Shown: in pieces, positions 10,944-54,939 of the stretch
How the letters are laid out: every line of letters begins with the position of its first letter
Position numbering within the stretch: position 1 is the stretch's first letter
NCBI GenBank assembly: GCA_965115835.1
Contig: OZ220471.1
Span: 1,292,401 to 1,356,400 of the forward strand
Direction of reading: 5' to 3'
From: Gammaproteobacteria bacterium
GTDB lineage: Bacteria > Pseudomonadota > Gammaproteobacteria > Steroidobacterales > Foliamicaceae
DNA: 64,000 nt
Program-made: the position numbers and the translations under genes
Notes under the pieces: generated by a model
Seen by the model: only the letters and a program-made list of their open reading frames with translations
Told to the model about the DNA's origin: nothing
Databases searched by the model: none

Positions 10944-11024
10944 CGAATCCTCCCGTACAGAACGAAAATCCCTGCGGCCTTCGGCTCTGGCCCGGCAGCA
11001 ACAGGGACTGTATAGAATAACCGC

Positions 11025-12844: not shown

Positions 12845-13081
12845 GAGCTTGCCCCGCAGGATGATTCGGCATTCAGCCAGTGGGATAGAGCGGCCGGATT
12901 TCGCCAGTATATGGCTTCCTTGGTCCCGATTATCGCCACCAAATCGAGGTATTTGCATAGTGCTGTCCCAAGAGAATTTTCTGCGGCGCAAGCTCCTGGC
13001 GATCCTGGGAGCAGGGCCGCGCATGGCTGCGAATGGGACCGGCGGGAAAGCAATGCCTCCGGCGCCACCGGACGGCACGCC

Positions 13082-31063: not shown

Positions 31064-31065
31064 GC

Positions 31066-31917: not shown

Positions 31918-31921
31918 TGTC

Positions 31922-34120: not shown

Positions 34121-34124
34121 GACG

Positions 34125-34751
34125 TCAATAATGGCAGGTCAAGCAGTCCCGGCCGTTGTCCACCTGCCGCTCGGTGTGGCAATCGATGCACCAGGGCATC
34201 CGCAGGTTCTCGTTGATGTCGACGCGGCGGGCAACCCGTTCCATTTCTTCCACCGGACCGTGGCATTCCTGGCACGCGACCCCGGCGCGAATATGCGGCT
34301 TGTGACGGAAATGGACGAAATCGGGCGTGTCATGCACCTTGACCCAGGCGATCCCCTCGCCCCGCTCCCAGTAGTCGAACAGTTTCTGCACTTCAGGCCG
34401 GTCGCGAACCTCGCCCAGGCCCTTGTGACATCCCACGCAGGTTTCCACGCTGGGCACGCCGGCAGTGGCCGAACGATCCGCCCAGGCATGGCAATACTCG
34501 CAGGGAATCCCGTTATCACCCGCGTGGATCCTGTGGCTGAACTCGATCGGCTGGACCGGAGTGTGGTCGTTCAGCCATGCGCCGTGCGCCCAATGGCCGA
34601 CAAACGCCCCGACAACTATCATCACGGCAACCAGCAGGCCTGTGAAAACGGGCCTTGCGGCCTCGAGCACCGAAATCGACAAGATCAACTCCACGCCTTG
34701 ACGGCGCGCGATTATAGACCCTTCCCGCCGCTCTGCCCACCGGCGGCGCAA
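34125..34751 (-). CDS. actA: Alternative Complex III pentaheme cytochrome c subunit ActA
   Basis: There are five CxxCH motifs (CEYCH, CVGCH, CQECH, CIDCH, CLTCH) after one TM helix. The start is uncertain and may be an internal TTG or GTG. Confidence 0.8.
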   Translation of the reverse strand: MRRRWAERREGSIIARRQGVELILSISVLEAARPVFTGLLVAVMIVVGAFVGHWAHGAWLNDHTPVQPIEFSHRIHAGDNGIPCEYCHAWADRSATAGVPSVETCVGCHKGLGEVRDRPEVQKLFDYWERGEGIAWVKVHDTPDFVHFRHKPHIRAGVACQECHGPVEEMERVARRVDINENLRMPWCIDCHTERQVDNGRDCLTCHY

Positions 34752-35014
34752 CGAAGCCGGATCACGGCGCCGGCATCCGCCAACAGCGGCCGATCAAGGC
34801 CGAGTCGTCCAGAAACCGAAAAGAGCAAGCCCAATTGGCAGCAACCAGTGAAAACATGAAATCGGACAAGATGTTGTGAAGTCTCATCCTGTCCTGGTGT
34901 GAGATACGCGGTCTACAATGCCCATCATGTGGCCCAGCCCATGGGGCTGCTTCGCGCCGGATTGCATTGCGGCTGCGTGAGCGGGAAATTGATCTACTCC
35001 GGAAACGAAACCTC

Positions 35015-36547
35015 GTGATCTTTCGCCCCCGGCAAATCCCGAGGGCAACGGCAACGCTTCTTGCCCTGGCGCTGGCCAGCGCGGCGCCCAGCCTTTCGGG
35101 CAGCGACGCGATGCTGCGCATGGCGGTGGTGAATCTGCCATCCAGTTTCGGCGACCCGTTCCGCGCCGTGGGCATTCCGGGCGATTTCGTGTGGCGGCAG
35201 ATATTCGACTCCCTCACGGAGAGCGGCGAAGACGGGCGCATTGCGCCCTTGCTGGCCAGACGCTGGGAGAATCCGAGCCCCTGTACCTGGCGTTTCGAGC
35301 TGCGTGAGGGGGTGCGCTTTTCCAATGGCAGGTCGTTCAACGCGGAGGCGGCGGGGCGGGTGCTGCGATGGCTGATGAGCGCCGAGGGTCAGGCCACGGT
35401 TGCAGGGTCCGAGTTGCGCGGCCTGCTCAGCGTGGAGGCTCCGGGTTCGCACACGCTGGTCGTCACCACGAAAACACCCGATCCGATACTGCCCAACCGC
35501 CTTGCGGTGGTGATGATGATCGATCCGCAAGCCTTTTCCGAGCTGGGCCGGCAAGGCTTTTCGCGACAACCCGTGGGCACCGGATCCTACATCGTGGAAG
35601 ATTGGCAAAACCGCAACGGCGCCCTCCTTCTGACTCCGAACCCCCATGCCTGGCGCCCGCCGCGAACACCACAGGTGGAGGTCTACCCGCTGCGCGACCA
35701 CGCCTCGCGTTTCCAGGCGGCGCTTTCGGGACAACTCGACATCGCCATGTCGCTGCGCCCCGAGCAACTGCAAGCGTTTGCAGAAAGGGGCTTTACCACG
35801 CACATCGATTCGCTGCGCCAGATCACCTCGCTGGCCTTCGACGTGACCGGGCATGCCGACACCCCGATCGGTGACGTCCGGGTTCGTCAGGCGCTCAACC
35901 ATGCGGTGAACCGCAAAGCCTTGTCGGACGACATCATGGCTGGCTTCGCCCCGCCGGCCAGCCAGGGATCCTCGCCTGGTGTGTTCGGGCACAACCGGGC
36001 GCTCAAGCCCTACCCCTTCGACCCGCAAAAGGCCAGGGCGCTGCTCGCCGCCGCCGGTTATCCGCAAGGATTCTCCATGGAGGTCCAGGTGGTTACCGGA
36101 ACCTATTCCAACGATCTGGAAGTGTTCGCCAAGGTGCAACAGGACCTGGCGGCCGTGGGCGTGACAGCGACTTTCCGCGCGACGCTGTTCTCGGACTGGA
36201 TCCGCCAGTATGTCCAGGGCGCCTGGCGCAGCGAAGCCTTCTCCATTGGCTGGAACACCGCGCCGCACAACGATGCCTTGCGGCCCATGGAGTACTTTTC
36301 CTGCCTGAAGAACCGGCCGTTTTTCTGCGACGAATCGCTGAACGAGCCGCTCGCTGCGGCCGCCCGGGAAATGGATCCGGCCCGCAGGGAAGCAATGCTT
36401 CAGGATCTGGCGATCGAATACCGCAACCGCGCGCCGAGCCTCCTGCTGCTTCAGTACGGACATATCTGGGTGGTTTCCCGGGAGGTGCGCGGCTTTCGGC
36501 TGCGAGCCCGTGTGCCGCAGCTCTACCGCATGGAACTGGCCCGATGA
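35015..36547 (+). CDS. ABC transporter substrate-binding protein, family 5 (peptide/nickel/opine type)
   Basis: The GTG at 35015 gives a signal-like N-terminus, ATATLLALALASAAPSLSG. Motifs LARRWENPSPCTWRFELREGVRFSNG and VGTGSYIV are typical of DppA/OppA-like proteins. The ORF could also start at 34967. Confidence 0.75.
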   Translation: MIFRPRQIPRATATLLALALASAAPSLSGSDAMLRMAVVNLPSSFGDPFRAVGIPGDFVWRQIFDSLTESGEDGRIAPLLARRWENPSPCTWRFELREGVRFSNGRSFNAEAAGRVLRWLMSAEGQATVAGSELRGLLSVEAPGSHTLVVTTKTPDPILPNRLAVVMMIDPQAFSELGRQGFSRQPVGTGSYIVEDWQNRNGALLLTPNPHAWRPPRTPQVEVYPLRDHASRFQAALSGQLDIAMSLRPEQLQAFAERGFTTHIDSLRQITSLAFDVTGHADTPIGDVRVRQALNHAVNRKALSDDIMAGFAPPASQGSSPGVFGHNRALKPYPFDPQKARALLAAAGYPQGFSMEVQVVTGTYSNDLEVFAKVQQDLAAVGVTATFRATLFSDWIRQYVQGAWRSEAFSIGWNTAPHNDALRPMEYFSCLKNRPFFCDESLNEPLAAAAREMDPARREAMLQDLAIEYRNRAPSLLLLQYGHIWVVSREVRGFRLRARVPQLYRMELAR

Positions 36548-37470
36548 TCCGGTCCGGTCTGGCCCAGCGTGCGGCAAGGCTGGCGACTCTCCTGCTGGGC
36601 GTCAATGCGCTGCTTTTCATTGCGCTGAACATGGCGGGCGACCCGGCGATGCTGCTGGCGGGGGAAGACGCACAACCGGAACTGGTTGAGCGCATCCGCG
36701 CCGAGCACGGGCTGGACCTGCCGGCCTGGCGGCGTTATCTGGTTCAACTCGGGCGCATGGCGCGGCTCGACTTCGGCGCCTCCCTGTACACCGGCCAGGC
36801 GGCGCTGGCAATGGTGCTGGAGCAGCTTCCGGGCACACTGCTGATGGCGGCGCTCGGTATGGGCCTGACGCTGGTCACGGCGATTCCCGCCGGCGTCTGG
36901 CTGGGGGCGCATCCCCAGGCGCCGTCCCGGCGTCTGGGCGCGTTGCTGACTACCATCGCCCAGGGCATTCCGGGGTTTGTGGCGGCGCTCGCCCTGATCC
37001 AGGTATTCGTGGCGCAACTGGGCTGGCTGCCATCCCTCGGTTACGCACGGCCCGCCGCCTGGATTCTGCCCAGCGTCTCCCTGGGCTTCTTCCTGGCGCC
37101 CAAGCTGTGCCGCATCGTCAGTGCGGGCGTGGCCGAAGCCATGCAGGAGGATTACATCCGTACCGCGCGAGCCAATGGCGCGAGCCCGCGCTTCATTCTG
37201 TGGCGCGAAGCCCTGCCCGCCGCCCTGCCGGCCGCCGTGGCGCTGATTGGCACGCAGTTCGCGTTCCTGATATCGGGCGTCGTGCTGATCGAGACGCTGT
37301 TCCTGTGGCCGGGCCTGGGACTGCTGCTGCTGCGCTCCGCCCAGACCCTGGACTTTCCGGTACTGCAGGCGATCAGCTTCGTGGTGGCGCTTTTGGTGTT
37401 CGCCGCCAACAGTCTGGCGGATGCCGCGCTGCGCCTGATCGACCCCCGGCTGCAGCCGGCCGCGCAATGA
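36544..37470 (+). CDS. ABC transporter permease (DppB-like)
   Basis: The 308-aa polytopic product carries an EAA-like loop (EDYIRTARANGASPRFILWREALP). It overlaps the SBP gene by 4 nt. Confidence 0.8.
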   Translation: MIRSGLAQRAARLATLLLGVNALLFIALNMAGDPAMLLAGEDAQPELVERIRAEHGLDLPAWRRYLVQLGRMARLDFGASLYTGQAALAMVLEQLPGTLLMAALGMGLTLVTAIPAGVWLGAHPQAPSRRLGALLTTIAQGIPGFVAALALIQVFVAQLGWLPSLGYARPAAWILPSVSLGFFLAPKLCRIVSAGVAEAMQEDYIRTARANGASPRFILWREALPAALPAAVALIGTQFAFLISGVVLIETLFLWPGLGLLLLRSAQTLDFPVLQAISFVVALLVFAANSLADAALRLIDPRLQPAAQ

Positions 37471-38313
37471 GCTTGCCCTCAAGCCTGCGACGGGGGCTGG
37501 AACCGTTTCGCGTGGCGCCGCAACTGGCCGCGGGCGTGGCCGCTCTTTCCGGGTGGCTGCTCCTGCTGGCGCTGGCAAGCGTACTGCAGACCCACGACCC
37601 GCAAGCTGGCGACCTGAGCCTGCGCTTTGCGCCTGCCGGCACGGCAAACCATTGGCTGGGAACCGACAACCTCGGCCGCGACCTGTGGTCGCGCGTGCTG
37701 TCCGGGCTGCCGTGGTCGGTGGGCGTCGCCTCGGTCTCCTGCCTGATCGCGCTGCTGCTGGGCGGGACCCTCGGCATGTGCGCGGCGCAGTTTCAGGGTT
37801 GGCCGCGCGCCATCATCAATCAGTTGGTGGACGCAACCTTGTCGTTCCCGGGACTGGTGGCGGCGATCATCATCGTGGCGGTGGCGGGCAGGGGCTTCTG
37901 GCCACTGAGCGTCACTCTGGGACTCCTGAGCTGGCCGGTATTTGCCCGGGTAGTTCATGCAGAGAGCCTGCGCCTGCTCGCGCAGGACTACGTGACCGCC
38001 GCGCGGGTCATTGGCAGTGTGCACGCCGCGCATCCTGCTGGGCCATGTCCTGCCCGGTCTCAGGCCAGTGCTCTCCGTAGTGCTTACCTTCCATTTCGCC
38101 GATATGCTGGTGGCCGAGAGCGCGCTCTCTTTCCTGGGCCTGGGAGCGCCGCTGGGCGTACCCACCTGGGGTGCGCTGCTGCAGGAATCCCGTGATTTCC
38201 TGCTCGTCGCTCCCTGGCTGATGGTGGTTCCGGGCACGGCCATTGCCTTGCTGGTGGTGTCCATTCACCTTTTGGGAGACGGTTTGCGCGTGCTCGACCG
38301 GGAGCAAGCGTGA
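37467..38313 (+). pseudogene. ABC transporter permease (DppC-like) interrupted by a +1 frame break near 38010-38030
   Basis: The N-terminal frame from ATG 37467 reads ...DYVTAARVIGSV and then becomes Arg/Pro-rich junk until the stop at 38195. The conserved continuation PRILLGHVLPGLRPVL...SFLGLGAP...LLGDGLR lies in the +1 frame (ORF 38011..38313). The total span is 847 nt, which is 3n+1. Confidence 0.7.
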
Positions 38314-39905
38314 ACGACGCGCAAACCACCGTCCTTCGCGTCCGCAAGTTGTGTGTGGACTTTCGCCGCAGCGGTCGAGTGCTGCACCAGGTGTCGCTGA
38401 ACGCAGACCGCGGAGAGATCGTGGGGCTGGTGGGCGAATCCGGGGCCGGCAAATCGATGCTGGCGCTGTCCATCCTGGGACTTGCGCCGGCAAGCGCCCG
38501 GATCCGTTCCGGACGCATCTTTCTTCATGGCCGGGAACTGACGGGGCTGGACGAAGAAACACTGCGGCCACTGCGCGGCAGGCTGGCGGGTTTCGTGTTC
38601 CAGGACCCCCTGTCCTCGCTCAACCCGCTGCGCCGGGTGGGCTCGGCCCTGATCGAGAGCGCCATGCGGCATTCCGGGCTGGACCGCGGACAGGCGCGAA
38701 AACGGGCGATCGAATCCTTGCGCGCGGTCGAGCTGCCGCGGCCGGAGACGGCCCTGCGCGCCTATCCCCACCAGTTTTCCGGAGGCCAGAGGCAGCGCAT
38801 CGTGATCGCGCTGGCGCTCATCAACCGCCCCGCGCTGCTGATTGCCGACGAACCCACAAGCGCTCTCGACGCCGCGGTGCAATCCCGGATTCTGGGTCTG
38901 CTGCAACGCGGCGCCAGACGCCGGACCCTGCTTTTGATCACCCACGACCTTGCGCTGGCGGCGCGGTTCTGTGATCGCGTGTATGTCATGCGGCGCGGAC
39001 GTGTAGTCGAGAACGGGCCGGCGCGGCAGGTATTCTCCGATCCGGCACACGAGTACACCCGCTCGCTGCTGGAATCACTGCCCGGCAGACGGGCCTTGCC
39101 GCAAGCTTCCTCACCGGGCCGGAAGGCGCAGGAACCGTTGGTTGCCGCGCACGGCCTGACTGTTCGTTACCGTGGCCTGGACCGGCCGGTAGTGGACAAG
39201 GCGTCGTTTGCAATCCTGCCCAACGAAACCGTTTGCCTGGTGGGCGAGTCCGGATCAGGCAAGACCACCATCGCGCGGGCCCTGGCGGGCGTCGTCCGCA
39301 CAACCCCCGGACAGGTTCGTTTCCCTGCCCTGAGCAACGAACGCCCCGCTGCCGCCGACCGTGCGCGCCATCTCCAGATGGTATTTCAGTACCCCTATTC
39401 CAGCCTCGATCCCCGGTGGACCGTGGAGCGCATCGTTGCGGAACCGTTGAGGACGCACCGCCTGTGTCCGGCAAGAGAGCGGTCCGACCGGGTGGCTGCC
39501 CTGCTCGGTCGCGTCGGTCTGGATCCGGCAACCATGCGGCGCCGTCCCGGCGCTTTTTCCGGCGGCCAGCGCCAGCGAATCGCGCTGGCGCGCGCCCTGG
39601 CCATGAACCCGCGCCTGCTGATCGCCGACGAGGCCCTCTCGGCTCTGGATATTCGCACCCAGGCGCGAATCCTCGCCCTGCTTCGCGATATTCGCGCAGA
39701 GCGGTGGCTCGCCCTGCTGCTGATCACACACGATCTGGCGTTGGCCGCGGAAATTGCCGACCGGGTCATCGTGCTGCGCAACGGGAAAATACTGGAGCAG
39801 GGACCGGTTTCGGCCATCGTGAATACGCCCAGGCGCCCGTACACGCGCGAGCTGCTCGCTGCCGGAGCTTGCCGGAGCTTCGGGCCGCGAACCGGAAGTT
39901 CGTGA
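38310..39905 (+). CDS. ABC transporter ATP-binding protein with two fused ATPase domains (DppD/DppF-like)
   Basis: Two Walker A motifs (GESGAGKS, GESGSGKT) and two signature motifs ([20 protein letters not shown]) are present. The start is GTG. Confidence 0.85.
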   Translation: MNDAQTTVLRVRKLCVDFRRSGRVLHQVSLNADRGEIVGLVGESGAGKSMLALSILGLAPASARIRSGRIFLHGRELTGLDEETLRPLRGRLAGFVFQDPLSSLNPLRRVGSALIESAMRHSGLDRGQARKRAIESLRAVELPRPETALRAYPHQFSGGQRQRIVIALALINRPALLIADEPTSALDAAVQSRILGLLQRGARRRTLLLITHDLALAARFCDRVYVMRRGRVVENGPARQVFSDPAHEYTRSLLESLPGRRALPQASSPGRKAQEPLVAAHGLTVRYRGLDRPVVDKASFAILPNETVCLVGESGSGKTTIARALAGVVRTTPGQVRFPALSNERPAAADRARHLQMVFQYPYSSLDPRWTVERIVAEPLRTHRLCPARERSDRVAALLGRVGLDPATMRRRPGAFSGGQRQRIALARALAMNPRLLIADEALSALDIRTQARILALLRDIRAERWLALLLITHDLALAAEIADRVIVLRNGKILEQGPVSAIVNTPRRPYTRELLAAGACRSFGPRTGSS

Positions 39906-40011
39906 CCCTTGCCCGGAAGGCCGCAATCCGGGGTGCCCGGCCCGGGTCAGGAGACTCGTCAAGGCGCAGCGACATTCCCACGGCGCCGTTGCGCATGTAC
40001 ACTGGGGGCCT

Positions 40012-41517
40012 GTGAAACGCCGAGATCTGTTGCGTGGCGCGGCCGGCGCCCTGGCGCTGGCGTCCCCGGCGGTGCGGGCTGCCGGCCTGCTGGAGCCTCG
40101 CTGGGACTTCATCATCGTGGGCGCCGGAACGGCGGGCCTTCCAGCCGCGATTCATGCGTCGAGGCGCGGCGCCAGCGTGCTGCTGCTGGAGGCGGCCGGC
40201 AAGCTGGGCGGCACGCTCAACATGGCGCAAGGTCAGATCAGCGCCGCGGGCACGCGGCTGCAGGAAGCCAGGGGCATTGCCGACTCGCCCGACCGGCACT
40301 ATGAAGACATCATGGAGATCACCTTCGGCGAGGCGGACCCGCTGATTATCCGGCGCACGGTGGATCAGGCCCCCGACACGCTGAACTGGCTGCTCGACCG
40401 CGGCCTCGTGCCCCTGCCCGATCATCCGATCACCGGCGCCGCGCCGGGACGCGCCGGTTACAGCGTGCCCCGCTATTTCTGGGGCGCGGAAGAAGGTCGC
40501 GCAATCCTCAAGGTGGTGCTGGAGGAGCTCGACCGGGAGTTGCCCGCCGGACGCATCGCCATACGGCTGAATACCCGCGTCCGTGGCCTGTTGATGTCCG
40601 ATGCGGGCGCGGTGGAAGGGGTGCGGGCGCAAGAGGGGAGTGAGGAATTCGCCTTTCAGGGCCGCCATGTGCTGCTCACCAGCGGCGGTTACGCCATGAA
40701 CCCCGACATGTTCGCATTGCTTACCGGGCATCCGGCCTACACCGCGAGCGCCTGGCCCCATTCGCTGGGCGACGGACTGGAACTGGCGGTTTCCGCAGGC
40801 GGATGGCTGCGAGGCCAGCGGCTTCATCGGGCGGGAACCGGTTCCATCCTCAGCGCCGATGCGTTTCCCGCCAGGGTGTACGCGCGATTCTCCACCGTCC
40901 CCCAGAATCGTCCGCCCTGGGAAATCTGGGTGAACAATCAGGGTCGGCGATTCATCCGCGAGGACGAACCTCGGGTCCGGGCGCGAGCCCGGGCGGTTCT
41001 GGGGCTGCCGCGCCTGCGCTACGTGATCGTGTTCGATGAGCACATCCTGGGCGCGGCGCCTCCCGGATTACCGGATTTCAGCCGCGAGCGGCTACTGGAG
41101 CACTGCAACAGCCACCCCATGTTCGCCCGGGCGAACAGTCTGGCCGAATTGGCGGCAAAGGCGAATGTGGATCCGACCGGGCTCGAACAGACAGTGAACC
41201 GCTACAACGCAGCCGTGGCGAGCGGCCAGGATGATTTCGGCAGAGAACATCTGCCGGCCCCCATCCGCCGGCCGCCTTTCTACGCCATCACACACCTGGG
41301 CAGTTCGGCCACCTCCTCGACGGGCGTGGCGGTCAACGGCGAGATGAAGGTCGTGCGGGGCAACCGGGAACCGATTCCCGGTCTCTACGCCGCCGGCGAG
41401 GTAATCGGCTCGGGCGCAACCCTCGGCGCCGCTTTCGCGCCGGGCATGATGCTCACCCCGGCGCTCTCCCTGGGGCGCTGGCTTGGCATGACGCTACCTG
41501 TCCGAACCCGGGTATAG
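40012..41517 (+). CDS. Tat-exported FAD-dependent oxidoreductase (FAD_binding_2 / fumarate reductase flavoprotein-like)
   Basis: The Tat signal is MKRRDLLRGAAGALALA. The dinucleotide motif is DFIIVGAGTAGLPAA. The C-terminal motif is GLYAAGEVIGSG. Confidence 0.75.
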   Translation: MKRRDLLRGAAGALALASPAVRAAGLLEPRWDFIIVGAGTAGLPAAIHASRRGASVLLLEAAGKLGGTLNMAQGQISAAGTRLQEARGIADSPDRHYEDIMEITFGEADPLIIRRTVDQAPDTLNWLLDRGLVPLPDHPITGAAPGRAGYSVPRYFWGAEEGRAILKVVLEELDRELPAGRIAIRLNTRVRGLLMSDAGAVEGVRAQEGSEEFAFQGRHVLLTSGGYAMNPDMFALLTGHPAYTASAWPHSLGDGLELAVSAGGWLRGQRLHRAGTGSILSADAFPARVYARFSTVPQNRPPWEIWVNNQGRRFIREDEPRVRARARAVLGLPRLRYVIVFDEHILGAAPPGLPDFSRERLLEHCNSHPMFARANSLAELAAKANVDPTGLEQTVNRYNAAVASGQDDFGREHLPAPIRRPPFYAITHLGSSATSSTGVAVNGEMKVVRGNREPIPGLYAAGEVIGSGATLGAAFAPGMMLTPALSLGRWLGMTLPVRTRV

Positions 41518-41565
41518 GCCTCCATCCGCGAGCAGCGTCCGGACGGACGCCGCTTGCGATGCTTG

Positions 41566-43752
41566 TCAGAATTCCCGGGTCGCGACCAGTCCGATCTGCC
41601 GGGGATCCGCCAGCGGGTACTGGAAGGCGCGCACGAAAGAGGAAGTGCGAGCGCTGTTTCCGCGCGGCAGTATGTTCTTGAAGTCCACAAAGCGGATCAC
41701 GGTGGAAGGCGTGCGGTCATCCGTGAGGTTGCGCACGAACAGGCCCAACTGCCATGCGCCCACATCCAGCCCCAGCCTCAGGTTGATCAGGTTCTGATCG
41801 CCGCTGTGCGCATGATTGAATATCTGCGCATACTTGCGACTGGCATACGAGTAGTCGGCCCGGATCCAGGCGATGTGGGCGCCCACAGGCCATTCATAGC
41901 GTGCGAAGGCGCTGGCCTGATGCTTCGATGCGTTGGGTGTCTGGTTGCCGGCCACCGACGGGTCTCCACCGGTGAATATCCGCTGCTCCGAATCGTCGAA
42001 CTCGACAAAGGAGGCATCGTTCAGGGCATAGCCGAAACCAGCCGTGAATTGCTCGGTAAAGATGTGCGCAACCTCGACTTCCAGGCCCCTGGCCTCGGTT
42101 TCACCGGCGTTGACCACGACCGTGATCGGGCGGCCGTCGCTGAGCGTCGCGCCCATGGTGAGCTGCTGGTTGGTCCAGTCGATGAAATAGGCGGCCACGT
42201 TGAACGTGGTGCGGCCGTCATTGATGGTGTTCTTGGCGCCCACCTCAAAGTTCCAGGACTCTTCCTCGTCGGCAAACAACAGCGCAGGATCCAGTAGCGG
42301 GTTGGCGTTGATGAAGCCCGGCTTGTTGCCCTTGGCGACCGTCCCGTACAGCAGACGATCCTCCGCATACTTCCAGTCCAGCGTGGCGCGCGGCGACCAG
42401 CTCTTGAACGTGTTTTCGATCAGCGGCAACGTGGGGCGGGCGGGCGGATTGTCGTTGCCGATCTGGTCGGAAGCGTAGCGCAGCTCCAGTGTGCCGGTTA
42501 TCGTATCGGAAAAGTCGCGGGCAACCGATCCGAACACGGCCCAGTGGTCCGTGCGCGCCTCGCCCTGATCGACGGTGGAGCCGTTGAGCCGGTCTTCGCG
42601 AAAGTCGCGGCGGCTCCGGTACAGGTACATCCCCCCCAGCAGCCGGGTAGCGCCCCCCAGGTCGGTATCGACCAGCAATTCGGTGGACCACTCGCGCCGG
42701 TCGCTGACGGCGATCCGATTGAAAGTTCCGCCCAATACAGTCGAGTTGGATGTGACATCCACATCATATCCGTACAGGACATCGGCGCCGAAGTAGCCCG
42801 TGTTGGACCGCACAGTGAAGTCGTCCAGGTCCCATTGAAGCTGTGCCGAAGCTCGCCAAGCCGTCTTGTCGAGGCCGATATCGTCGCCGAACAGCTCGAG
42901 GTTCTGCTCGGTGCTGTCCAGTTCCACCACCTCGCCGCAGTAGTACTGCCGTGCGATTTCCAGAAAACAGTTGTTCCGGGTGCGATCCTGCAAGGTCACG
43001 GCGGCAGCGCCATCGTCATCCTTGCCGTAGCCCAGATTGAAGCGGGCCGAGAAGCGCTCCGAGAGCCGCAGCTCCAGGGAAAGGTTCAGGTTGACCGACT
43101 CTTCGTCGCCCACGAGCTGGTTATCCAGCGTGTTGCGGTAGAAGCCGCCATAGGTGTAGTAACGTACATGAGCCATGTAAAAGGCGCTGTCTCGAGAAAT
43201 CGGTCCGCGGGAGAGGAAGTTGAACTCGCCTTCTTCATGCTCCGCCACGCGCAACGACACCTTGTTCTCCGGCTCGTTGGTCCCCTTTTTGGTGATCAGG
43301 TTGATGGCGCCGGCAAAGGTCGCGCGACCGAACAGCGCCGCCTGCGGGCCCTTGATCACTTCTACCCGTTCGACAATATCGAAGGGAAACGACAGGATGG
43401 AGTCGTTGTACTGCACGCCGTCGACGAAAATGGACGCGTTAGCCTCGCCCAGGATCTGCGACTGCCCCCGGATGACCGGGCGGCTACCGCCACCTTGCAC
43501 ACCGTAGCGATTCAACTTCTCGAACGAGAAGCCCGGCGTGAACTGGCTGATGTCCATCACGTCGCCCAGGCCGCGTTCGCTCAATTCGGCTGCCGTGAAC
43601 GCGGCAATCGCGAGCGGCACGTCCTGAATCCTCTCTTCCTGCTTGCGCGCAGTGACCACCACTTCCTCGATCTCCCCGGCGCCTTGCTGCGCCAGCGCCG
43701 CCGGCGCGCTCACAGCGAGCGTACAGGCAAGGAACCCGATTCCTGTCCTCAT
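41566..43752 (-). CDS. TonB-dependent outer-membrane receptor
   Basis: The start at MRTGIGFLACTLAVSAPAALA gives a signal peptide. The plug region reads IEEVVVTARKQEERIQDVPLAI. A long beta-barrel ends in the terminal ...VATREF. Confidence 0.9.
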   Translation of the reverse strand: MRTGIGFLACTLAVSAPAALAQQGAGEIEEVVVTARKQEERIQDVPLAIAAFTAAELSERGLGDVMDISQFTPGFSFEKLNRYGVQGGGSRPVIRGQSQILGEANASIFVDGVQYNDSILSFPFDIVERVEVIKGPQAALFGRATFAGAINLITKKGTNEPENKVSLRVAEHEEGEFNFLSRGPISRDSAFYMAHVRYYTYGGFYRNTLDNQLVGDEESVNLNLSLELRLSERFSARFNLGYGKDDDGAAAVTLQDRTRNNCFLEIARQYYCGEVVELDSTEQNLELFGDDIGLDKTAWRASAQLQWDLDDFTVRSNTGYFGADVLYGYDVDVTSNSTVLGGTFNRIAVSDRREWSTELLVDTDLGGATRLLGGMYLYRSRRDFREDRLNGSTVDQGEARTDHWAVFGSVARDFSDTITGTLELRYASDQIGNDNPPARPTLPLIENTFKSWSPRATLDWKYAEDRLLYGTVAKGNKPGFINANPLLDPALLFADEEESWNFEVGAKNTINDGRTTFNVAAYFIDWTNQQLTMGATLSDGRPITVVVNAGETEARGLEVEVAHIFTEQFTAGFGYALNDASFVEFDDSEQRIFTGGDPSVAGNQTPNASKHQASAFARYEWPVGAHIAWIRADYSYASRKYAQIFNHAHSGDQNLINLRLGLDVGAWQLGLFVRNLTDDRTPSTVIRFVDFKNILPRGNSARTSSFVRAFQYPLADPRQIGLVATREF

Positions 43753-44182
43753 GCGGAAACCTCCAGAAAAAACAAGCCACAAGGAATATACCCGAAAATC
43801 GCCGCCGTATCGGCGAACGGCCACAGGCTCCAGGAGCGCGCCTATCCGAAGGACAACCTGGAGGGATCCAGTCAGCCATCAGGACAGTCGGCCGCGGATG
43901 CGTAAGGCGGGTTCTCCGGAAGCCAAAAAGCCCGCCATTTCAGGAGCAGCAATTCCCGACAAGCGTGACAATGCTCGAAAATCAGCTCCGGCCCAACGCC
44001 TGAATAATCACAAGCTTGGGTATCCGGCCCTGAACGAATGGCTCTGCATCATTAGCGGGAATTGCTGTTTCCGGGCTTCCGAAATTGAGCAACATCGAAA
44101 ATGTCCGAACTCGAGAGAACACCATGCCGGTTCCGCCGGATGCCGAGTCTCGACCTCTTTTCAAGGAATACGCCCGGCGGCG

Positions 44183-44480
44183 CTATCCGCGGGTGCTTTC
44201 GTCTTCGCTCCCCCTCAGTGTGAAGTAGATCCGTTCGATGAACTCCCGGCGCTCCCGGTCGAGGGCCGCGCGTTCTTCCTCGCTGAACTCGAAGGATTCC
44301 ACGGCCGCCGCGCTTGCCGAGCGCCTCCAGCGCCGCCAGCCTTTCCTTGACCACCCACAACTCCTGGGCCAGACCCATGGTGATGGACACCAGTTCGTCC
44401 ACTCCCCGGACCTCGAAGAAACGATGCGTCTTGCCCCGGGTAATATCCCCCAGCCGGGGCTTCGGAGAATCTCCGGACAA
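44183..44480 (-). CDS. small hypothetical protein, apparently split by a 1-nt frame break near 44300-44320
   Basis: Frame 1 from TTG 44480 reads LSGDSPKPRLGDITRGKTHRFFEVRGVDELVSITMGLAQELWVVKERLAALEAL and then becomes Arg-rich junk. The +1 frame from about 44302 reads VESFEFSEEERAALDRERREFIERIYFTLRGSEDESTRG and stops at TAG 44183. The span is 298 nt, which is 3n+1. I recognise no family. Confidence 0.3.
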
Positions 44481-44491
44481 GACCGCAGACC

Positions 44492-45694
44492 CTACTTCCA
44501 GGCGCCGAAACAGTACCAGCGAATCGACGGCGCCAACCGCCCGGTGTTCTCGTCCACCACCAGGCCCTTCCCGGCCACATAGTCCCGAAACTCGTTCGGG
44601 CCGTTGCGCGCCAGACTGGGAATCGTGAACTCCACGAATGCGGATGAGTCGAATCCGGCTTCAGCGCACAGTTCCCCGGGATGCATGTCGCGAAACGCCT
44701 TGTAGTACGGCTCCTGGTTGTAGTAGCTGTCCCAATCCAGGTAGAAGCTGTCGTAAGGCCGGGTGCGGCAATTGGGCGGCAACTCCATGTGCAGCATGAG
44801 CCCGCCCTTTCGCAGAAGGCGACGCGCTTCGCGAAGCACCGCCCGCACTTCCCCGGGCGGAAGCTCGTGCAGAAACATGGAAGACCACACCACATCGAAG
44901 CTTTCCTCGCCATCAAGATTACACTCGGTGGCATTCATCTGCCGGAAGTGAACCTTCACGCCCAGCAACTCCGCCCGTGCGTGCGCGTAGCGCAGCAACG
45001 GCGCAGCCGCATCCACGGCCCAGGTCTCGGCGGCGGAAAAGGCGCGCGCCCAGGGCAGCGTGTTGGAGCCGATGGAGCACCCCATGTCGAGGATGCGACG
45101 CGGTCGGAAATCGGGATATTTCGCGGCAACGAACCTCGCTACGGTGTTCCCGATGTCGTCACGATCGCTGCCGAACAGGCCCATGCTATGCACGGCTGTT
45201 CCGTTGTCGTAAAGCGCGCCCGCGGCGGCGTCATTGGCGCCGTGCTCGGTGTGATAGCAACCCGGCATCAGGTGTACATCATGATTGACGATATAGGGGG
45301 GCATGTCCAGGTCCGGCGCGAGTTCGAGCGTGCCGCCGTATTCGTTGCCGGTGGCGGGCACGGCGCCCACCCGCCGGTTCAGCTCGTCGAGGTTGCGCTC
45401 AATGGTGGGGATAACCGACCGCCAGACCAGCTTCTGGCAGTTCACGCGCATGGCCGAATAAAAACGGTATGCGGATTCGGCGCGCATGGCCTTGTGCACC
45501 TGCACGCCGTCCTGCGGCGGAGCCCCCGTCTCACGGGTAATCGCGGGCTCGATCTTGCGGTCGTATGCCGAGCGCATTTCCCGCGCCAGGTCTCCCAGGA
45601 TATGGCGCCGCATCTCGCACACGAAGCGCTGGCGCGACAGTTCGTCCCGGGTGGGCTCGATACGAAGGCCGTGTCGCACATAGTCGGTCATCAA
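44492..45694 (-). CDS. class I SAM-dependent methyltransferase with a ~190-aa N-terminal extension
   Basis: SAM motif I is RILDMGCSIGSNT. Post-I and II motifs are AVDAAAPLL and FDVVWSSMFLHELP. Confidence 0.75.
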   Translation of the reverse strand: MMTDYVRHGLRIEPTRDELSRQRFVCEMRRHILGDLAREMRSAYDRKIEPAITRETGAPPQDGVQVHKAMRAESAYRFYSAMRVNCQKLVWRSVIPTIERNLDELNRRVGAVPATGNEYGGTLELAPDLDMPPYIVNHDVHLMPGCYHTEHGANDAAAGALYDNGTAVHSMGLFGSDRDDIGNTVARFVAAKYPDFRPRRILDMGCSIGSNTLPWARAFSAAETWAVDAAAPLLRYAHARAELLGVKVHFRQMNATECNLDGEESFDVVWSSMFLHELPPGEVRAVLREARRLLRKGGLMLHMELPPNCRTRPYDSFYLDWDSYYNQEPYYKAFRDMHPGELCAEAGFDSSAFVEFTIPSLARNGPNEFRDYVAGKGLVVDENTGRLAPSIRWYCFGAWK

Positions 45695-45905
45695 GAACGC
45701 CCCCGGATCCGGTCAGGATGTATGGAAGTTCAGCATACCGCATTCATGGGCAAGAAAGCGTCGAATGATGGAACAACGGCGCCAGGCGGCCAGTGCGCGC
45801 CAGGGGGAAGCGGTGAAAGCGTATAGAATCCTCAAGGCCCTACGGCGTCGTCGGATTCGGGCAAGCATCGCGCCGGGAGTCCCCCGGAATGAGGAGCAAA
45901 ATCAG

Positions 45906-46931
45906 GTGAGCGTGAACGAGCAAGAGGAAATCATTGCGCCGCACGGTTCGCCGTTGCGGGCCGCCGTGATCGGCTGTCGCGATCTCGATGCGTCCAGGGC
46001 GTTCTACCGGGACCGGATCGGCCTGTCGGTACTGGCCGACGAGTTGTGGAACGGACCGGAGTTCTGCCGCTTCTGGAACCTGCGCGAGGGAACGGCCGCG
46101 CGCGCCGTGCTGCTTGGGCAGGGCGACGAGGCCGTTGGTCAGGTGCTGCTACTCGAGTTCCAGCTGCCCGAGGGCGGCGCACCGCCAGTCGAAGTGCGCG
46201 ACCGCAGCGTGGTTCGCGCCTACGGCGTGTTCAACCTGAACTTCTACACCGCCGACATCCACGCGGCATTCAAGGCCCTGAAAAAGAGCGGATTCGTCAC
46301 TTGGGCACAACCGGTGCAACACCATTTCGGACCCGCTGTGGGAGATCCGATTGAAGGCATTTTCGAAGGGCCGGACCGGGTCCCGATCAATCTGGTGGAA
46401 CTCGCCACCCGCGACCCCGCCACACGCGTCGGGCAAATGCGGGCCTATGTGGAGCGACGCGGCTACACGAAAACCGGCTTCACGCCCATCGTCACGACCT
46501 CGCACGGAGTCGATTCCTGCGAGCGCGCCATGGCCTGGTATGGCGGGGTTCTGGGCATGGAGCCGCTGATCGACGAGGAGCTTGGCGCTCCGGCGTCCAA
46601 TAGCTTGCTCAATCTACCGGAGGACGCCAGAACCCGGGTGGTCTTCATGCAGGGCGCCCACATGTTCGGCAAGGTGGTGCTCTCGCAACCGCTCAATTAC
46701 GAGTGTGAATCGCTGATCAAGAGGGCCAGGCCGCCGAATATCGGTTATCTGGCGCAGGCCTTCCCGGTCCCGGACCTGAATGAAGCCGCCAGACAGTGCG
46801 AGGCGATGCGGATCGAAGTGGCCAGCAGCCCCCGGGAAACGGCTTGGCCCGGCGCGGGAAACGTGCCCGCCATGCTGGTGCGCACACCCGGCAGCGGCGC
46901 CTTGCAATGGTTGCTGGAGGATCGCGCATGA
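45906..46931 (+). CDS. two-domain VOC (glyoxalase / extradiol dioxygenase fold) protein
   Basis: The GTG at 45906 is preceded by GAGGAG 9 nt upstream. There are two beta-alpha-beta-beta-beta modules (AVIGCRDLDASRAFYRDRIGL and VDSCERAMAWYGGVLGM). Confidence 0.65.
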   Translation: MSVNEQEEIIAPHGSPLRAAVIGCRDLDASRAFYRDRIGLSVLADELWNGPEFCRFWNLREGTAARAVLLGQGDEAVGQVLLLEFQLPEGGAPPVEVRDRSVVRAYGVFNLNFYTADIHAAFKALKKSGFVTWAQPVQHHFGPAVGDPIEGIFEGPDRVPINLVELATRDPATRVGQMRAYVERRGYTKTGFTPIVTTSHGVDSCERAMAWYGGVLGMEPLIDEELGAPASNSLLNLPEDARTRVVFMQGAHMFGKVVLSQPLNYECESLIKRARPPNIGYLAQAFPVPDLNEAARQCEAMRIEVASSPRETAWPGAGNVPAMLVRTPGSGALQWLLEDRA

Positions 46932-47878
46932 GCATTCATGGAATGACCTCGGTCACGGTGGGGGTAAGCAACATCGAAGAATCGCTGCGCCTGTTTCGCG
47001 ACGCCATGGAGTTGCAAGTGGAGAACGATACCGGGGCGCCGCCCGCACTGCTGGATGCCTGGGGGCTGCCTGCCGGCGCCGGCGCCCGGTTGGTCGAACT
47101 GTCCTGCCGCGGATACCCCGCCGGACGCCTGCGCCTGGCCCAATACACGCCTGCCGTTACCGGCGCCGTTCGTCTCGACCACGGCGCGGGAGCAGTCGAT
47201 TCCTCGACCGACATTGGCCCCAAGGCTATCGACTTCTATGTTCCGCCGCCCATGAGCAAGGCCGTCGAGGCCGTTACCGGCGCCGGTTTTGCCTTCCGCT
47301 CCGAGCCTATCCGTTACGAGATAGGCGATGTCGAAAGCGAGGAGTGCCTGTTTTCCGGCCCCGACGGCGTGCCCGCGCTCCTGATGATCGGCCACCGCCA
47401 CCCTCCCGAGTCCATGCGCGCCTTGCCCGGGGGTGTTCGCTTCTCCGAAATCGCGACCACATCGGTGGTGTGCGCCGACCCGGAGGCAGCCCGCCGCCTT
47501 TACTGCGATGCGCTCGGCATGGAGGCCGGAACCGAGGCCTGGGCGCCGGAAGAAAACCTGGATCTGGCGCGCCGGCTGACCGGCGTGAAGGAAGCCTCCG
47601 GCATGCATTTCCTCTTGGTCGCCAGTCCCGGAGAACCCAGCGGCAAGCTGCTGTTCGTGCATTTCCGCAACGCGCCGGGCAAGCGCCTGAGCGGGCGCAT
47701 GCGCCCCGGAAGGCTCGGCGTGAACCTGTTCAGTTACACCGCAAGCGATCTCGACGCCACCCTGGCGAAAGCCTGCGAGGCGGGCGGCGCGCTGCTGCGC
47801 GGTCCGACGAGGGTGGGCGACCGTCGCGTGGCGCTGCTGCTCGGCCCCAGCGAGGAACTCCTCGAACTGACCGGTTGA
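46928..47878 (+). CDS. second two-domain VOC-fold protein
   Basis: An ATGA overlap couples it to the previous VOC gene. Modules are VTVGVSNIEESLRLFRDAMEL and VVCADPEAARRLYCDALGM. Confidence 0.65.
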   Translation: MSIHGMTSVTVGVSNIEESLRLFRDAMELQVENDTGAPPALLDAWGLPAGAGARLVELSCRGYPAGRLRLAQYTPAVTGAVRLDHGAGAVDSSTDIGPKAIDFYVPPPMSKAVEAVTGAGFAFRSEPIRYEIGDVESEECLFSGPDGVPALLMIGHRHPPESMRALPGGVRFSEIATTSVVCADPEAARRLYCDALGMEAGTEAWAPEENLDLARRLTGVKEASGMHFLLVASPGEPSGKLLFVHFRNAPGKRLSGRMRPGRLGVNLFSYTASDLDATLAKACEAGGALLRGPTRVGDRRVALLLGPSEELLELTG

Positions 47879-47892
47879 GAGCCTCTGCCAGG

Positions 47893-48831
47893 ATGTTGGA
47901 ACAGGGCGCCTCGGGCATGGACCGCCGAACACTGTTGCAGGGTTTGATATCGGCGCCTGTGGCGCTGGCATGGACGGGAGCGCGGACCGAAACCACGGGG
48001 CGCGAGCGGGGGCGAATTCGCCGGCGCTACGTGGATGGGCGGTTCGGCCAGATGCACCTGCGTATTGCCGAAGCCCTTGATGAATCTGCGGGCAACACGC
48101 CGCTGATGTGCTTTCATCCCACGGCCGTGTCGGGGGATTTCTTCCACGACTTCATGCTGGAGATGAGCCGGGACCGGCGGGTGATGGCGATGGACACGCC
48201 GGGTTACGGGCGGTCGGACCCGCCGCCCGAACCGCAGCCGATGAGCGAACTTGCCGGCGCCGCCGCCGACGCGCTGGAGGCGCTGGGCTACGGGGCCGAT
48301 AGCCAGGGCGCAGTGGATGTAATCGGCTATCACACCGGAACTTTCATCGCGATCGAACTGGCCGTCGCCCGCCCGGACCTTGTGCGCCGGCTGGTGCTGC
48401 CGGGAATCCCCTATAACGTGGGCGAAAAGCGCCGGGAAATGTACCAGCGCTACGCCCGGCGCAAGGAGCTTGCGGAAGATGGATCGAGCGTCATGGAGAT
48501 CTGGCGCTTCTGGGTGACGAACCGGCACCCGGATGTTTCCCTGCAGCGCGGCGCCTCGCACTTCGCCGACCATCTGCAATCGGGACCCCATTCCTGGTGG
48601 GCCTATCACAGCGTGTTCAGCTATCCGGCCGAAGAGCGCCTGCCTCGGGTGCAGCAACCGGTTCTGGTGCCCAATACGCATGGCAACCTGCGGGAAAACT
48701 CCCGGGAGGCCGCGCGGCTGCTGCCGGATGTGCGGGTGGTGGAAATGCCCGGCCTCACCCACGGCGTGTTCGATGTGGGTGCGGAGCAGCTGGCCGGCGT
48801 GGCGCGCGAGTTCCTGGACTCGGCCCCGTGA
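47893..48831 (+). CDS. alpha/beta-hydrolase-fold protein with a Tat-like signal
   Basis: MDRRTLLQGLISAPVALAWTGA resembles a Tat signal. The core reads PLMCFHPTAVSG...MDTPGYGRSDPP...VIGYHTGTFIAIELA. It is paralogous to the gene at 54049..54861. Confidence 0.65.
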   Translation: MLEQGASGMDRRTLLQGLISAPVALAWTGARTETTGRERGRIRRRYVDGRFGQMHLRIAEALDESAGNTPLMCFHPTAVSGDFFHDFMLEMSRDRRVMAMDTPGYGRSDPPPEPQPMSELAGAAADALEALGYGADSQGAVDVIGYHTGTFIAIELAVARPDLVRRLVLPGIPYNVGEKRREMYQRYARRKELAEDGSSVMEIWRFWVTNRHPDVSLQRGASHFADHLQSGPHSWWAYHSVFSYPAEERLPRVQQPVLVPNTHGNLRENSREAARLLPDVRVVEMPGLTHGVFDVGAEQLAGVAREFLDSAP

Positions 48832-49643
48832 AATTCGAAAGGGTTGCCGCCCTCGGAGCCGAGGTGTCCGGGATCGAACTCTCCCCGAACCTGTCGCAGA
48901 CCGCAATCGACGAGATCGAGCGGGGCCTGCTGGAACACCGGGTGCTGTTTTTCCGCGATCAGGGCTTGAGTGGCGAGGAACTGGTCGAATTCTCCCGGCG
49001 CTTCGGGAAAAGTTTCATTCAGCCGGCGCTGGCGCACAAATATCGGGAACTCCTGTTTCTCGAGAACGACAGGAACAAGCCCCCCACGCTCAATACCTTT
49101 CACCAGGACATGACCGGCCTCAAGCAACCCCCGGCGCTGCACATGCTGCATGCACTGGTGATTCCGGACGGCGGCGGCGACACCATGTGGGCCTGCAACT
49201 ACTGCGCCTACGAAGCTCTTTCAGAAAGCATGAAGCAGATCCTTTGCGGCTTGCGCTGCACCCACAGTGTGCTCCGGTACTACGGACCGATCATCGAGAC
49301 CTGGAAGAACAGCGCGGAAAAACGGAAGGAATTCGAGGCGGCCTTTCCGCCGGTATCACACCCTCTGGTAAGAACCCACCCGCAAACCGGCCGCAAATCG
49401 CTGTTCGTCAACCGCTTCTTCACCGACCGCATCGATGGCTTCACGGCGAAGGAAAGCGAGAACCTCCTCGAATTCCTGTACCGTCACATCGAAACACCGG
49501 AGTTCTGTGTCCGGCTGAGATGGAGGGTGGGGACGCTGGCCATCTGGGACAACCGCTGCACCTCTCACTACGCGGTGGCCGACTATTACCCGCAGCACCG
49601 CAAGATGCAGCGCGCGTCAGTCGCCGGCGACCCTGTTTTCTGA
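48828..49643 (+). CDS. TauD/TfdA-family Fe(II)/2-oxoglutarate dioxygenase
   Basis: A GTGA overlap couples it to the hydrolase gene. The HxD iron motif is in TFHQDMTG, and the distal His lies in IWDNRCTSHYAV. Confidence 0.75.
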   Translation: MKFERVAALGAEVSGIELSPNLSQTAIDEIERGLLEHRVLFFRDQGLSGEELVEFSRRFGKSFIQPALAHKYRELLFLENDRNKPPTLNTFHQDMTGLKQPPALHMLHALVIPDGGGDTMWACNYCAYEALSESMKQILCGLRCTHSVLRYYGPIIETWKNSAEKRKEFEAAFPPVSHPLVRTHPQTGRKSLFVNRFFTDRIDGFTAKESENLLEFLYRHIETPEFCVRLRWRVGTLAIWDNRCTSHYAVADYYPQHRKMQRASVAGDPVF

Positions 49644-53872: not shown

Positions 53873-53925
53873 GACACCGCCCTCCTGTCTGGAATTTCCC
53901 AATGCCTCGCAGGCGTAAGTTGGAA

Positions 53926-54861: not shown

Positions 54862-54939
54862 GGGGAGATCCGCACACCCCTTGTCCCCCGGAGATAGCGC
54901 CGCAGCCGCTTGGCGGGCGCCGTCCGGCCGCCGTTTCCG

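Follow-up and report, generated by a model that had tools for sequence, protein, structure and literature searches.

A candidate import-and-processing island

In Proteobacteria, nutrient islands that combine a TonB-dependent receptor (TBDR) with an ATP-binding cassette (ABC) importer carry the importer genes beside genes for exported and cytoplasmic enzymes. Here we describe a block of twelve genes, located at positions 34,967 to 49,643 of a 64,000-nucleotide stretch of contig OZ220471.1 (hereafter the window) from a Gammaproteobacteria bacterium (assembly GCA_965115835.1), that has the same architecture and the same predicted compartment logic. Unlike these islands, the block has no regulator and no match to a characterized pathway, carries a methyltransferase gene paired with a gene for a small partner protein, and encodes an importer that is frameshifted. 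Parts of the block can also be compared with the Dpp/Opp/Nik/Gsi family-5 importers, the tauABCD, ssuEADCB and atsK systems, the flavocytochrome c3 and UrdA proteins, and the BphC/BphD and HsaC/HsaD pairs, and these comparisons are made below for each component.

Gene calls for the window, which has a G+C content of about 65%, were made from third-position G+C and from Pfam scans. They bear out the gene order and domain types that an earlier sequence-only reading of the block had claimed. The ATGA and GTGA overlaps between genes and the 14-nt gap that separates the VOC2 gene from the alpha/beta-fold gene, when read directly from the sequence, are exactly as that reading gave them.

Our interpretation, to which we give a probability of about one half, is that the block is a modular import-and-processing island for an anionic small molecule in sponge-associated, Candidatus Foliamicus-like Gammaproteobacteria, and that the island is partly decayed in this genome. 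It is located between an alternative-complex-III operon and a glycine-cleavage operon, and its genes form three separable modules, with start/stop overlaps joining genes within each module. The first module would serve uptake and periplasmic processing, and would comprise the TBDR, a Dpp-type ABC importer and a flavoprotein exported by the twin-arginine translocation (Tat) system. The second would form a cytoplasmic core, in which a methyltransferase and its apparently obligate helical partner of about 100 amino acids act with the VOC-domain protein VOC1 and, in this clade only, with VOC2. The third would consist of an alpha/beta-fold protein with a Tat signal whose gene is translationally coupled to that of a TauD-like oxygenase.

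From this arrangement we infer the following order of steps. An anionic small organic compound would cross the outer membrane through the TBDR. In the periplasm, the flavoprotein would reduce or oxidize a C=C bond next to a carboxylate or carbonyl group, and the alpha/beta-fold protein would also modify the compound. After import, the TauD-like enzyme would cleave the compound oxidatively next to a heteroatom, and its products would pass to the VOC proteins and the methyltransferase pair. A relation of the compound to amino acids or peptides is probable, and the host may be its source. If the island does handle a host metabolite, it would, in our framing, tie sponges to an uncultured lineage of symbionts through a specific nutrient.

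Conservation and modularity within the clade

A profile scan with VOC1, using one genome per species, yielded 80 loci with 10-kb flanks in which every protein of the block was compared. Sixteen of these loci are Foliamicus-like (VOC1 74-83% identical) and 64 come from other lineages. The closest homologues are from metagenome-assembled genomes (MAGs) named Candidatus Foliamicus sp. or Gammaproteobacteria bacterium, whose isolate names (COS, CAR, RHO, PNGco, SB06xx) we take to be those of sponge-metagenome bins. The literature found on Foliamicus and on DUF1838 (a domain discussed below) held no functional information, and the titles and abstracts on UBA10353 with sponge gave no lead.

The full gene order is present in about 10 of the 16 Foliamicus-like species genomes, at 70-86% amino-acid identity. 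The arrangement is thus conserved within a single clade rather than being a one-off adjacency. The most widespread component is the methyltransferase gene with its small partner (15 of 16 loci), followed by VOC2 (14, with two loci lacking it), the alpha/beta-fold and TauD-like gene pair (12), the TBDR (11), the ABC genes (10) and the flavoprotein (10, or 11 with a further comparison). Losses affect whole modules. The entire ABC/flavoprotein/TBDR segment is absent from four loci that keep the enzyme genes (L006, L007, L009 and L018), and two of these (L006 and L009) carry genes for a Tat-signal M24 peptidase and a Tat-signal pyridoxal phosphate enzyme in its place. Three loci whose flanks are complete show no alpha/beta-fold/TauD-like pair within 10 kb. 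In addition, large repeat proteins are inserted at differing points in different genomes. The separate losses of modules and the variable insertions indicate that the region is a variable island built from modules. For the VOC-VOC-hydrolase-TauD-methyltransferase-TBDR set, whose synteny the sequence-only reading had named as its test, the picture is mixed: the set is syntenic in these relatives, with modular losses, and in its complete form it occurs in none of the 64 loci from other lineages, where only sub-sets are seen. The single linear route through all twelve genes, as first proposed, is not supported, since the modules are lost separately and recur outside the clade only in part.

Most relatives (L005-L020, at about 11,950-14,200 of each locus) carry a second TBDR gene, of about 690 codons and on the opposite strand, between the VOC2 and alpha/beta-fold genes. 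In the window, this place (47,879-47,892) is occupied only by the 14-nt gap.

Recurrence in other lineages

The 64 loci outside the clade are from Steroidobacteraceae, Rhodospirillaceae and other Alpha- and Gammaproteobacteria, and their VOC1 proteins are 43-54% identical to that of the window. No homologues of VOC2, the TauD-like protein, the ABC genes or the TBDR are present within the 10-kb flanks of these loci. A methyltransferase match is located within 10 kb of VOC1 in 22 of the 64, where the proteins are 24-33% identical to the window methyltransferase and so are paralogues rather than orthologues. The 14 loci with a called gene have it some 1.2 kb upstream of VOC1 and mostly divergent from it, as in the window. 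A partner gene of about 124 codons was called in 12 loci, and its product aligns with the 97-amino-acid partner of the clade. The small partner also accompanies methyltransferases of about 50% identity that are not beside VOC1 (L003, L004, L086, L089), on either side of the methyltransferase gene, which makes the pairing a property of the methyltransferase family.

Other components of the block reappear in various combinations. Two loci (L033 and L062) carry VOC1 with a flavoprotein homologue that is 40% identical and keeps its export signal, together with two methyltransferases and secreted alpha/beta hydrolases. In two others (L076 and L079), VOC1 is followed directly by a member of the alpha/beta-fold family that has no signal. 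At L086, a TauD-like orthologue is located less than 5 kb from a small VOC gene and a partner/methyltransferase pair, with an M24 peptidase gene about 5.5 kb away. L089 (contig_5 of ERZ26166911) has two divergent methyltransferase/partner pairs side by side at 8,389-11,532, surrounded by genes for a TBDR, two MFS transporters, an M24 peptidase, cupins and an amidohydrolase, and by Dpp-type ABC genes. L002 has three methyltransferase genes, two of which are tandem homologues (about 395 amino acids) of the window gene. Together, L089 and L002 suggest that uptake islands are places where the methyltransferase family expands.

Around methyltransferase modules, the recurrent families are M24 peptidases or creatinase-like proteins, amidohydrolases, amidases, Dpp-type ABC importers and MFS transporters, a set that loosely suggests organic acids that are small and nitrogen-containing or peptide-like. 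Many neighbours of VOC1 in other lineages are plainly housekeeping genes. In 15 of the Steroidobacteraceae-type loci among L021-L059, a gene for a secreted DUF1838 protein of about 300 amino acids directly follows the methyltransferase/partner pair, about 2.8 kb upstream of VOC1.

Several points weigh against a shared import-and-processing role. Within a clade at about 80% identity, synteny is to be expected whether or not genes are functionally coupled, and as the housekeeping flanks share it, in-clade synteny alone is no proof of such coupling. The modules are lost and gained separately, and therefore they need not serve one substrate. The full set was never seen among the 64 loci outside the clade, and the contexts of TauD-like orthologues elsewhere are mostly unrelated. 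VOC1 appears to lack an obvious 2-His-1-carboxylate site, and the alpha/beta-fold protein has no Ser nucleophile. Catabolic routes do not usually include a methyltransferase. The two frameshifts described below could both be assembly errors, most plausibly the 1-nt one. Finally, the evidence gathered does not allow a substrate to be named.

The genes might instead be neighbours by descent only, such that unrelated functions have gathered in a variable region between two housekeeping operons and share no pathway. We regard this as possible but doubtful. It would account well for modules that are independently present or absent among relatives, for a region that also collects eukaryote-like repeat-protein insertions and a second TBDR, for a complete set that was never seen outside the clade, and for the variable contexts of distant TauD-like orthologues. 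However, the translational coupling inside each operon speaks against it, as does the re-association, in differing orders in unrelated lineages, of the genes for VOC1, the methyltransferase and its partner, the flavoprotein, the alpha/beta-fold protein and the TauD-like protein. The alpha/beta-fold copy in the block has also gained a Tat signal, unlike its paralogues.

A broader proposal, which we put forward only tentatively, is that the methyltransferase and its obligate partner beside VOC1 represent an uncharacterized but widespread two- or three-component system for small-molecule processing in Proteobacteria. This system would be joined less often by an alpha/beta-fold protein without a nucleophile, by a periplasmic flavoprotein resembling enoate reductases and by a TauD-like oxygenase that does not act on taurine. 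Sponge symbionts might have coupled it to a TBDR and an ABC importer, which would let them use a host metabolite by an undescribed route. Three of the families involved (the methyltransferase/partner pair, VOC1 and the alpha/beta-fold proteins with a His elbow) have no characterized member in the libraries searched, and their repeated co-location offers a starting point for assigning function.

Two disrupted genes

The gene for ABC permease 2 (37,467-38,313, plus strand) carries a +1 frameshift near position 38,011. An intact 279-amino-acid orthologue aligns to positions 37,491-38,012 in one frame and to 38,011-38,307 in another, and the window has one extra T at this point (CATTGG) where 10 relatives have CATGG. 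The second disruption is in the gene for the helical methyltransferase partner, whose remnant occupies 44,184-44,480 on the minus strand. Here, 11 nucleotides near position 44,310 are missing from this genome alone when compared with all aligned relatives, and every orthologue aligns in split frames. The sequence-only reading had not noted the frameshift in permease 2 and had listed a 142-amino-acid small unknown ORF (open reading frame) beside the methyltransferase gene. The latter is a read-through of the frameshifted copy of the conserved 97-amino-acid partner gene, since the proteins of relatives switch frame near 44,310.

Exactly two genes with split frames, these two, are present in the approximately 27 kb of the window covered by proteins of relatives. 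A base-calling error is unlikely to be the cause of the 11-nt deletion, and it could be the cause of the 1-nt insertion. Either the island is decaying in this genome or assembly errors have occurred at just these two places. A functional importer of the Dpp/Opp type requires two intact permease genes; permease 2 is intact in relatives and disrupted here, so the import step proposed at the inner membrane is broken as encoded. With the methyltransferase partner frameshifted as well, the island as encoded is at least partly non-functional. These disruptions caution against inferring a working pathway from domain content alone, which can mislead.

The TauD-like oxygenase

The last gene of the block (48,828-49,643, plus strand) overlaps the alpha/beta-fold gene by a GTGA sequence and codes for an Fe(II)/2-oxoglutarate oxygenase of the TauD/TfdA family (TauD Pfam match, 200 bits). 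In a search of the PDB, its closest characterized relatives are E. coli TauD (223 bits) and then a second taurine dioxygenase, followed by (R)-phenoxypropionate dioxygenases (184-190 bits) and, lower, the alkylsulfatase AtsK (156 bits). The window protein keeps the Fe site (His99, Asp101, His255) and the 2-oxoglutarate ligand Arg266, as do 58-59 of the 59 members of its orthogroup. Arg270, which binds the anionic sulfonate group, is also retained throughout and points to a substrate with an anionic group.

Several features set the protein apart from taurine dioxygenases. It scores 264.3 bits against the taurine-dioxygenase equivalog NF007104, for which the cut-off is 313. Its orthogroup is a discrete set of 271-amino-acid proteins that are at least 55% identical, and beyond this group identity is at most 51%. 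The taurine-contacting residues of E. coli TauD are His70, Tyr73, Asn95, Ser158 and Arg270. Positions 70, 73, 95 and 158 are Gln, Leu, Leu and Tyr in the window protein, such that only Arg270 is kept. Gln at position 70 is shared by 57 of the 59 orthogroup members, and Leu95, Met102 and Tyr159 occur throughout the group. Positions 73 and 95 also vary among lower-scoring proteins that are named taurine dioxygenase, and therefore the replacement of His70, the score below the cut-off and the gap in identity form the main basis of the distinction. An assignment as taurine dioxygenase was rejected on these grounds.

The retained Fe, 2-oxoglutarate and anion-binding residues are nevertheless those expected if the locus scavenged sulfur in the manner of the tau, ssu or ats systems. 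In this scheme, an organosulfonate or sulfate ester would be imported and stripped of its sulfite or sulfate by the TauD-like enzyme, which would leave the carbon skeleton for the other enzymes to dispose of. The characterized relatives named above fit such a role, as does the origin of the related genomes in sponge-associated MAGs, given that taurine and sulfated compounds abound in sponges. We consider sulfur scavenging unlikely, however. The oxygenase belongs to a distinct orthogroup with its own residues at the substrate-contacting positions, the solute-binding protein (SBP) of the block is of family 5 rather than of the TauABC or SsuABC type, and no SsuD/E or sulfite-handling gene was found in the block. 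The scheme also leaves the methyltransferase pair and the VOC proteins unexplained.

VOC proteins, the methyltransferase and its partner

The VOC1 gene (45,906-46,931, plus strand, with a GTG start at 45,906 or 45,912) codes for a 341-amino-acid protein with Glyoxalase and Glyoxalase_4 matches. It overlaps by ATGA with the VOC2 gene (46,928-47,878, plus strand; 316 amino acids, Pfam Glyoxalase), and each of the two proteins has two VOC domains, a point that the sequence-only reading had missed. VOC2 is a paralogue of VOC1 (about 25-30% identity) and is found, at 79-84% identity, only in Foliamicus-like loci. VOC1 has 389 homologues and no significant sequence match in the PDB. Its AlphaFold2 model (pLDDT 93) finds generic two-domain VOC proteins by Foldseek, with template-modelling (TM) scores near 0.6. 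Candidate roles as 4-hydroxyphenylpyruvate dioxygenase or hydroxymandelate synthase were rejected, with TM scores of only about 0.3.

In the VOC1 alignment, His200 and His252 are nearly invariant, and Gln284 and Gln334 of the C-terminal domain are invariant. No Glu or Asp is invariant in the family after residue 223, that is, in the last 90 or so residues. Judged from sequence and predicted secondary structure, without superposition, VOC1 thus seems to lack a conserved carboxylate at the usual third metal-ligand position. The ring-cleavage chemistry that had been proposed finds no support at the level of residues. The BphC/BphD and HsaC/HsaD pairs offer the nearest parallel: there too, a two-domain VOC gene lies beside an alpha/beta-fold gene, an arrangement that recurs in unrelated genomes, and the alpha/beta-fold protein has weak profile matches to HsaD and meta-cleavage product hydrolases. 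Unlike in those pairs, the C-terminal domain of VOC1 has no conserved carboxylate ligand, and the alpha/beta-fold protein has His in place of Ser and an export signal.

The methyltransferase gene (44,492-45,691, minus strand) codes for a 399-amino-acid class I enzyme that uses S-adenosylmethionine (SAM), with Methyltransf_25, Methyltransf_11 and Methyltransf_12 matches on residues 186-321 (E values of 1e-13 to 1e-19). It has more than 2000 homologues, an invariant motif I (D202-x-G204-C205-x-x-G208) and fold matches to SAM-bound methyltransferases. The AlphaFold2 model (pLDDT 88.5) resembles generic small-molecule methyltransferases in Foldseek (TM 0.33-0.43), and a PDB sequence search gave distant or generic matches only. 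Neither the helical N-terminal portion of about 180 amino acids nor the small partner belongs to a Pfam family, and an exact-sequence look-up of the window methyltransferase returned no record. The partner, a helical protein of 97 amino acids in the clade, belongs to a family with a conserved RERL..LE motif.

Two specific assignments were set aside. An arsenic-related ArsM/ArsI pair was rejected because ArsM-type matches are marginal (21-22 bits against cut-offs of 510-575), and the characteristic Cys motifs are, on our reading of the sequences, absent. A sterol methyltransferase was rejected because there is no Sterol_MT_C domain. Among NCBIfam models, no equivalog was found for any enzyme, the SBP or the TBDR, and only the ATPase passed cut-offs. 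Thus, as had been proposed, the locus fits no named pathway: no enzyme could be assigned to a characterized one by NCBIfam, by PDB searches or, for VOC1 and the methyltransferase, by Foldseek.

The structural matches of the methyltransferase include the natural-product enzymes RedM, NovO, RebM and MitM, and TauD/TfdA, VOC and Thioesterase-like families are, like methyltransferases, common as tailoring enzymes. The block might then be a small biosynthetic cluster in which the methyltransferase, a TauD-type hydroxylase, the VOC proteins and a thioesterase-like protein (the alpha/beta-fold protein has a weak Thioesterase Pfam match) make a metabolite that is taken up again by its own importer. 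This seems to us quite improbable, since no scaffold-forming enzyme (nonribosomal peptide synthetase, polyketide synthase, ligase or synthase) was found in the segments of the 64-kb window that were examined, two of the enzymes are exported, and the transport genes encode importers rather than exporters.

The flavoprotein and alpha/beta-fold protein, two predicted exported enzymes

The flavoprotein gene (40,012-41,517, plus strand) codes for a member of the soluble fumarate-reductase/urocanate-reductase superfamily (FAD_binding_2, 171 bits), and the alpha/beta-fold gene (47,893-48,831, plus strand) codes for a protein with an Abhydrolase_1 match. Both products begin with a Tat-like signal, in which twin arginines (KRRDLL in the flavoprotein, DRRTLL in the alpha/beta-fold protein) are followed by a hydrophobic stretch, and both signals are conserved in relatives. 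In the flavoprotein, the motif reads KRR[DE]LLKGAGA in 10 relatives, and SKREFL is found in the distant copies of L033 and L062. In the alpha/beta-fold protein, RRR[LI][VI]Q..L.A is found in 8 relatives and the twin arginines are absent from the cytoplasmic paralogues. Accordingly, the Tat signals and compartments claimed for these proteins hold up, and both are predicted to be periplasmic.

The best PDB match of the flavoprotein is Shewanella flavocytochrome c3 (151 bits), with urocanate reductase at 93 bits. It shares with flavocytochrome c3 and UrdA the flavin-domain fold, the catalytic Arg402 and a predicted periplasmic location, and Arg381 is also kept. In contrast to these proteins, it has no haem domain and is exported by a Tat signal. 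The four fumarate-binding positions of flavocytochrome c3 (His365, Thr377, His504 and Arg545) are Gly, Val, Ala and Phe. A role as a fumarate reductase of the flavocytochrome c3 type was rejected for these reasons, and the replacement of the four residues means that its substrate differs from that of the fumarate reductase.

The nucleophile elbow of the alpha/beta-fold protein reads G-Y-H-T-G, in which His aligns with the Ser of PDB entries 3kxp (G-H-S-L-G) and 4g8c (G-W-S-L-G). Across the whole family, this position is His or Gln, with Gln in a distant member. A serine hydrolase was rejected as a candidate because the elbow holds neither Ser nor Cys nor Asp. The protein is a hydrolase by fold only, and a PDB sequence search gave distant or generic matches. 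The hydrolysis in the periplasm that had been assigned to it is therefore doubtful. A C-terminal His of the catalytic type is kept only in the copies of the family that carry a Tat signal. The paralogue beside the glycine-cleavage genes (54,049-54,939, minus strand) has the elbow G-F-H-S-G.

The transport genes

The importer operon begins with a gene for a periplasmic SBP of family 5, of the Dpp/Nik/Gsi type (34,967-36,547, plus strand; SBP_bac_5, 200 bits; start codon uncertain). This gene overlaps by ATGA with that for permease 1 (36,544-37,470, plus strand; BPD_transp_1), and the disrupted permease 2 gene overlaps by GTGA with a gene for a fused double ATPase of the Dpp/Opp type (38,310-39,905, plus strand; two ABC_tran stretches and oligo_HPY). 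Like the Dpp, Opp, Nik and Gsi importers, the operon thus specifies an SBP_bac_5 protein, two BPD_transp_1 permeases and ATPase domains with oligo_HPY. Unlike in these importers, the two ATPases are fused in one protein and the SBP is only distantly related. In NCBIfam and the PDB it comes closest to NikA and GsiB/YliB, with 113-121 bits against equivalog cut-offs of 594-600, and no SBP with a known ligand scores above 121 bits. Its orthologues in relatives are 69-74% identical.

The ATPase exceeds the cut-offs for NikD and NikE, yet its scores for YejF and GsiA in NCBIfam are higher still, which makes the Nik matches generic to the Dpp/Opp/Nik ATPase family. The TBDR gene (41,566-43,752, minus strand, convergent with the flavoprotein gene) codes for plug and beta-barrel domains. 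Its product is 83-86% identical in relatives and falls below every NCBIfam cut-off.

There is little chance that these proteins serve metal uptake, with a nickel, cobalt or iron chelate entering through the TBDR and a NikA-like SBP/ABC system and the enzymes releasing or recycling its ligand. In favour of this reading, the SBP best matches NikA, staphylopine-binding CntA and GsiB, the best TBDR profile is the siderophore-receptor subfamily, and the ATPase scores against NikD/NikE and CntD/CntF. Against it, the SBP (113 bits versus 600) and TBDR (128 versus 223.5) fall far under the cut-offs, the ATPase matches are family-generic, no metallophore synthase, Fur-type element or typical reductase was found, and in most other lineages no transporter accompanies VOC1 or the methyltransferase with its partner.

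Regulation and the divergent spacer

The sequence-only reading had noted the absence of a regulator, and Pfam likewise finds no transcription-factor domain in the block or its immediate neighbours. A riboswitch or other Rfam element that might account for this absence was not found in an Rfam scan, and a scan for promoter and terminator consensus sequences was not above its shuffles.

The methyltransferase and VOC1 genes diverge from a spacer (45,692-45,905) that contains the two palindromes for which an operator role had been proposed. Both are present as reported, a GTATG-N9-CATAC inverted repeat at 45,720-45,738 and a CCGGATCCGG palindrome at 45,703-45,712. However, the expectation for 212 bp of this window is about 7.8 inverted repeats with 5-bp arms and a spacer of 0-20 nt, and 0.33 for perfect palindromes of 10 bp. 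The spacer is 212 bp long here and about 110-125 bp in 11 of 12 aligned relatives, from which the segment holding both palindromes is absent. The remaining relative (L008) has AGTAT-N9-ATACT at the position aligned with this segment. An operator was thus rejected, as the palindromes are no more frequent than chance and are not conserved.

Flanking genes and intergenic regions

The longer intergenic stretches contain no repeats or remnants of mobile elements. The region between the start of the TBDR gene and the end of the small partner gene (43,753-44,183) is an untranslated stretch of about 430 bp, whereas relatives have about 75 bp there. Neither the related loci nor Rfam gave a match to this stretch, and it is free of repeats within the window. 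Where the flavoprotein and TBDR genes converge, the 48-nt gap that separates them (41,518-41,565) holds the inverted repeat GCGTCCGGACGGACGC, which might form a bidirectional terminator hairpin.

On the left, the block adjoins the alternative-complex-III-like operon (29,651-34,751, minus strand), which encodes a multihaem cytochrome that is cytochrome c7-like, a molybdopterin-type subunit, an FeS subunit and NrfD. In relatives without the ABC/flavoprotein/TBDR segment, this operon is nearer the methyltransferase gene, with few genes between.

To the right of the TauD-like gene is a gene for a 1351-amino-acid protein that contains numerous leucine-rich repeats and fibronectin type III domains (49,847-53,902, minus strand), followed by the alpha/beta-fold paralogue and then the glycine-cleavage genes. 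The TauD-like gene and the paralogue/glycine-cleavage operon are adjacent in relatives, and the 1351-amino-acid protein gene is therefore an insertion. In a different relative, a gene for a 2067-amino-acid protein with fibronectin type III domains is inserted between the TBDR and flavoprotein genes.

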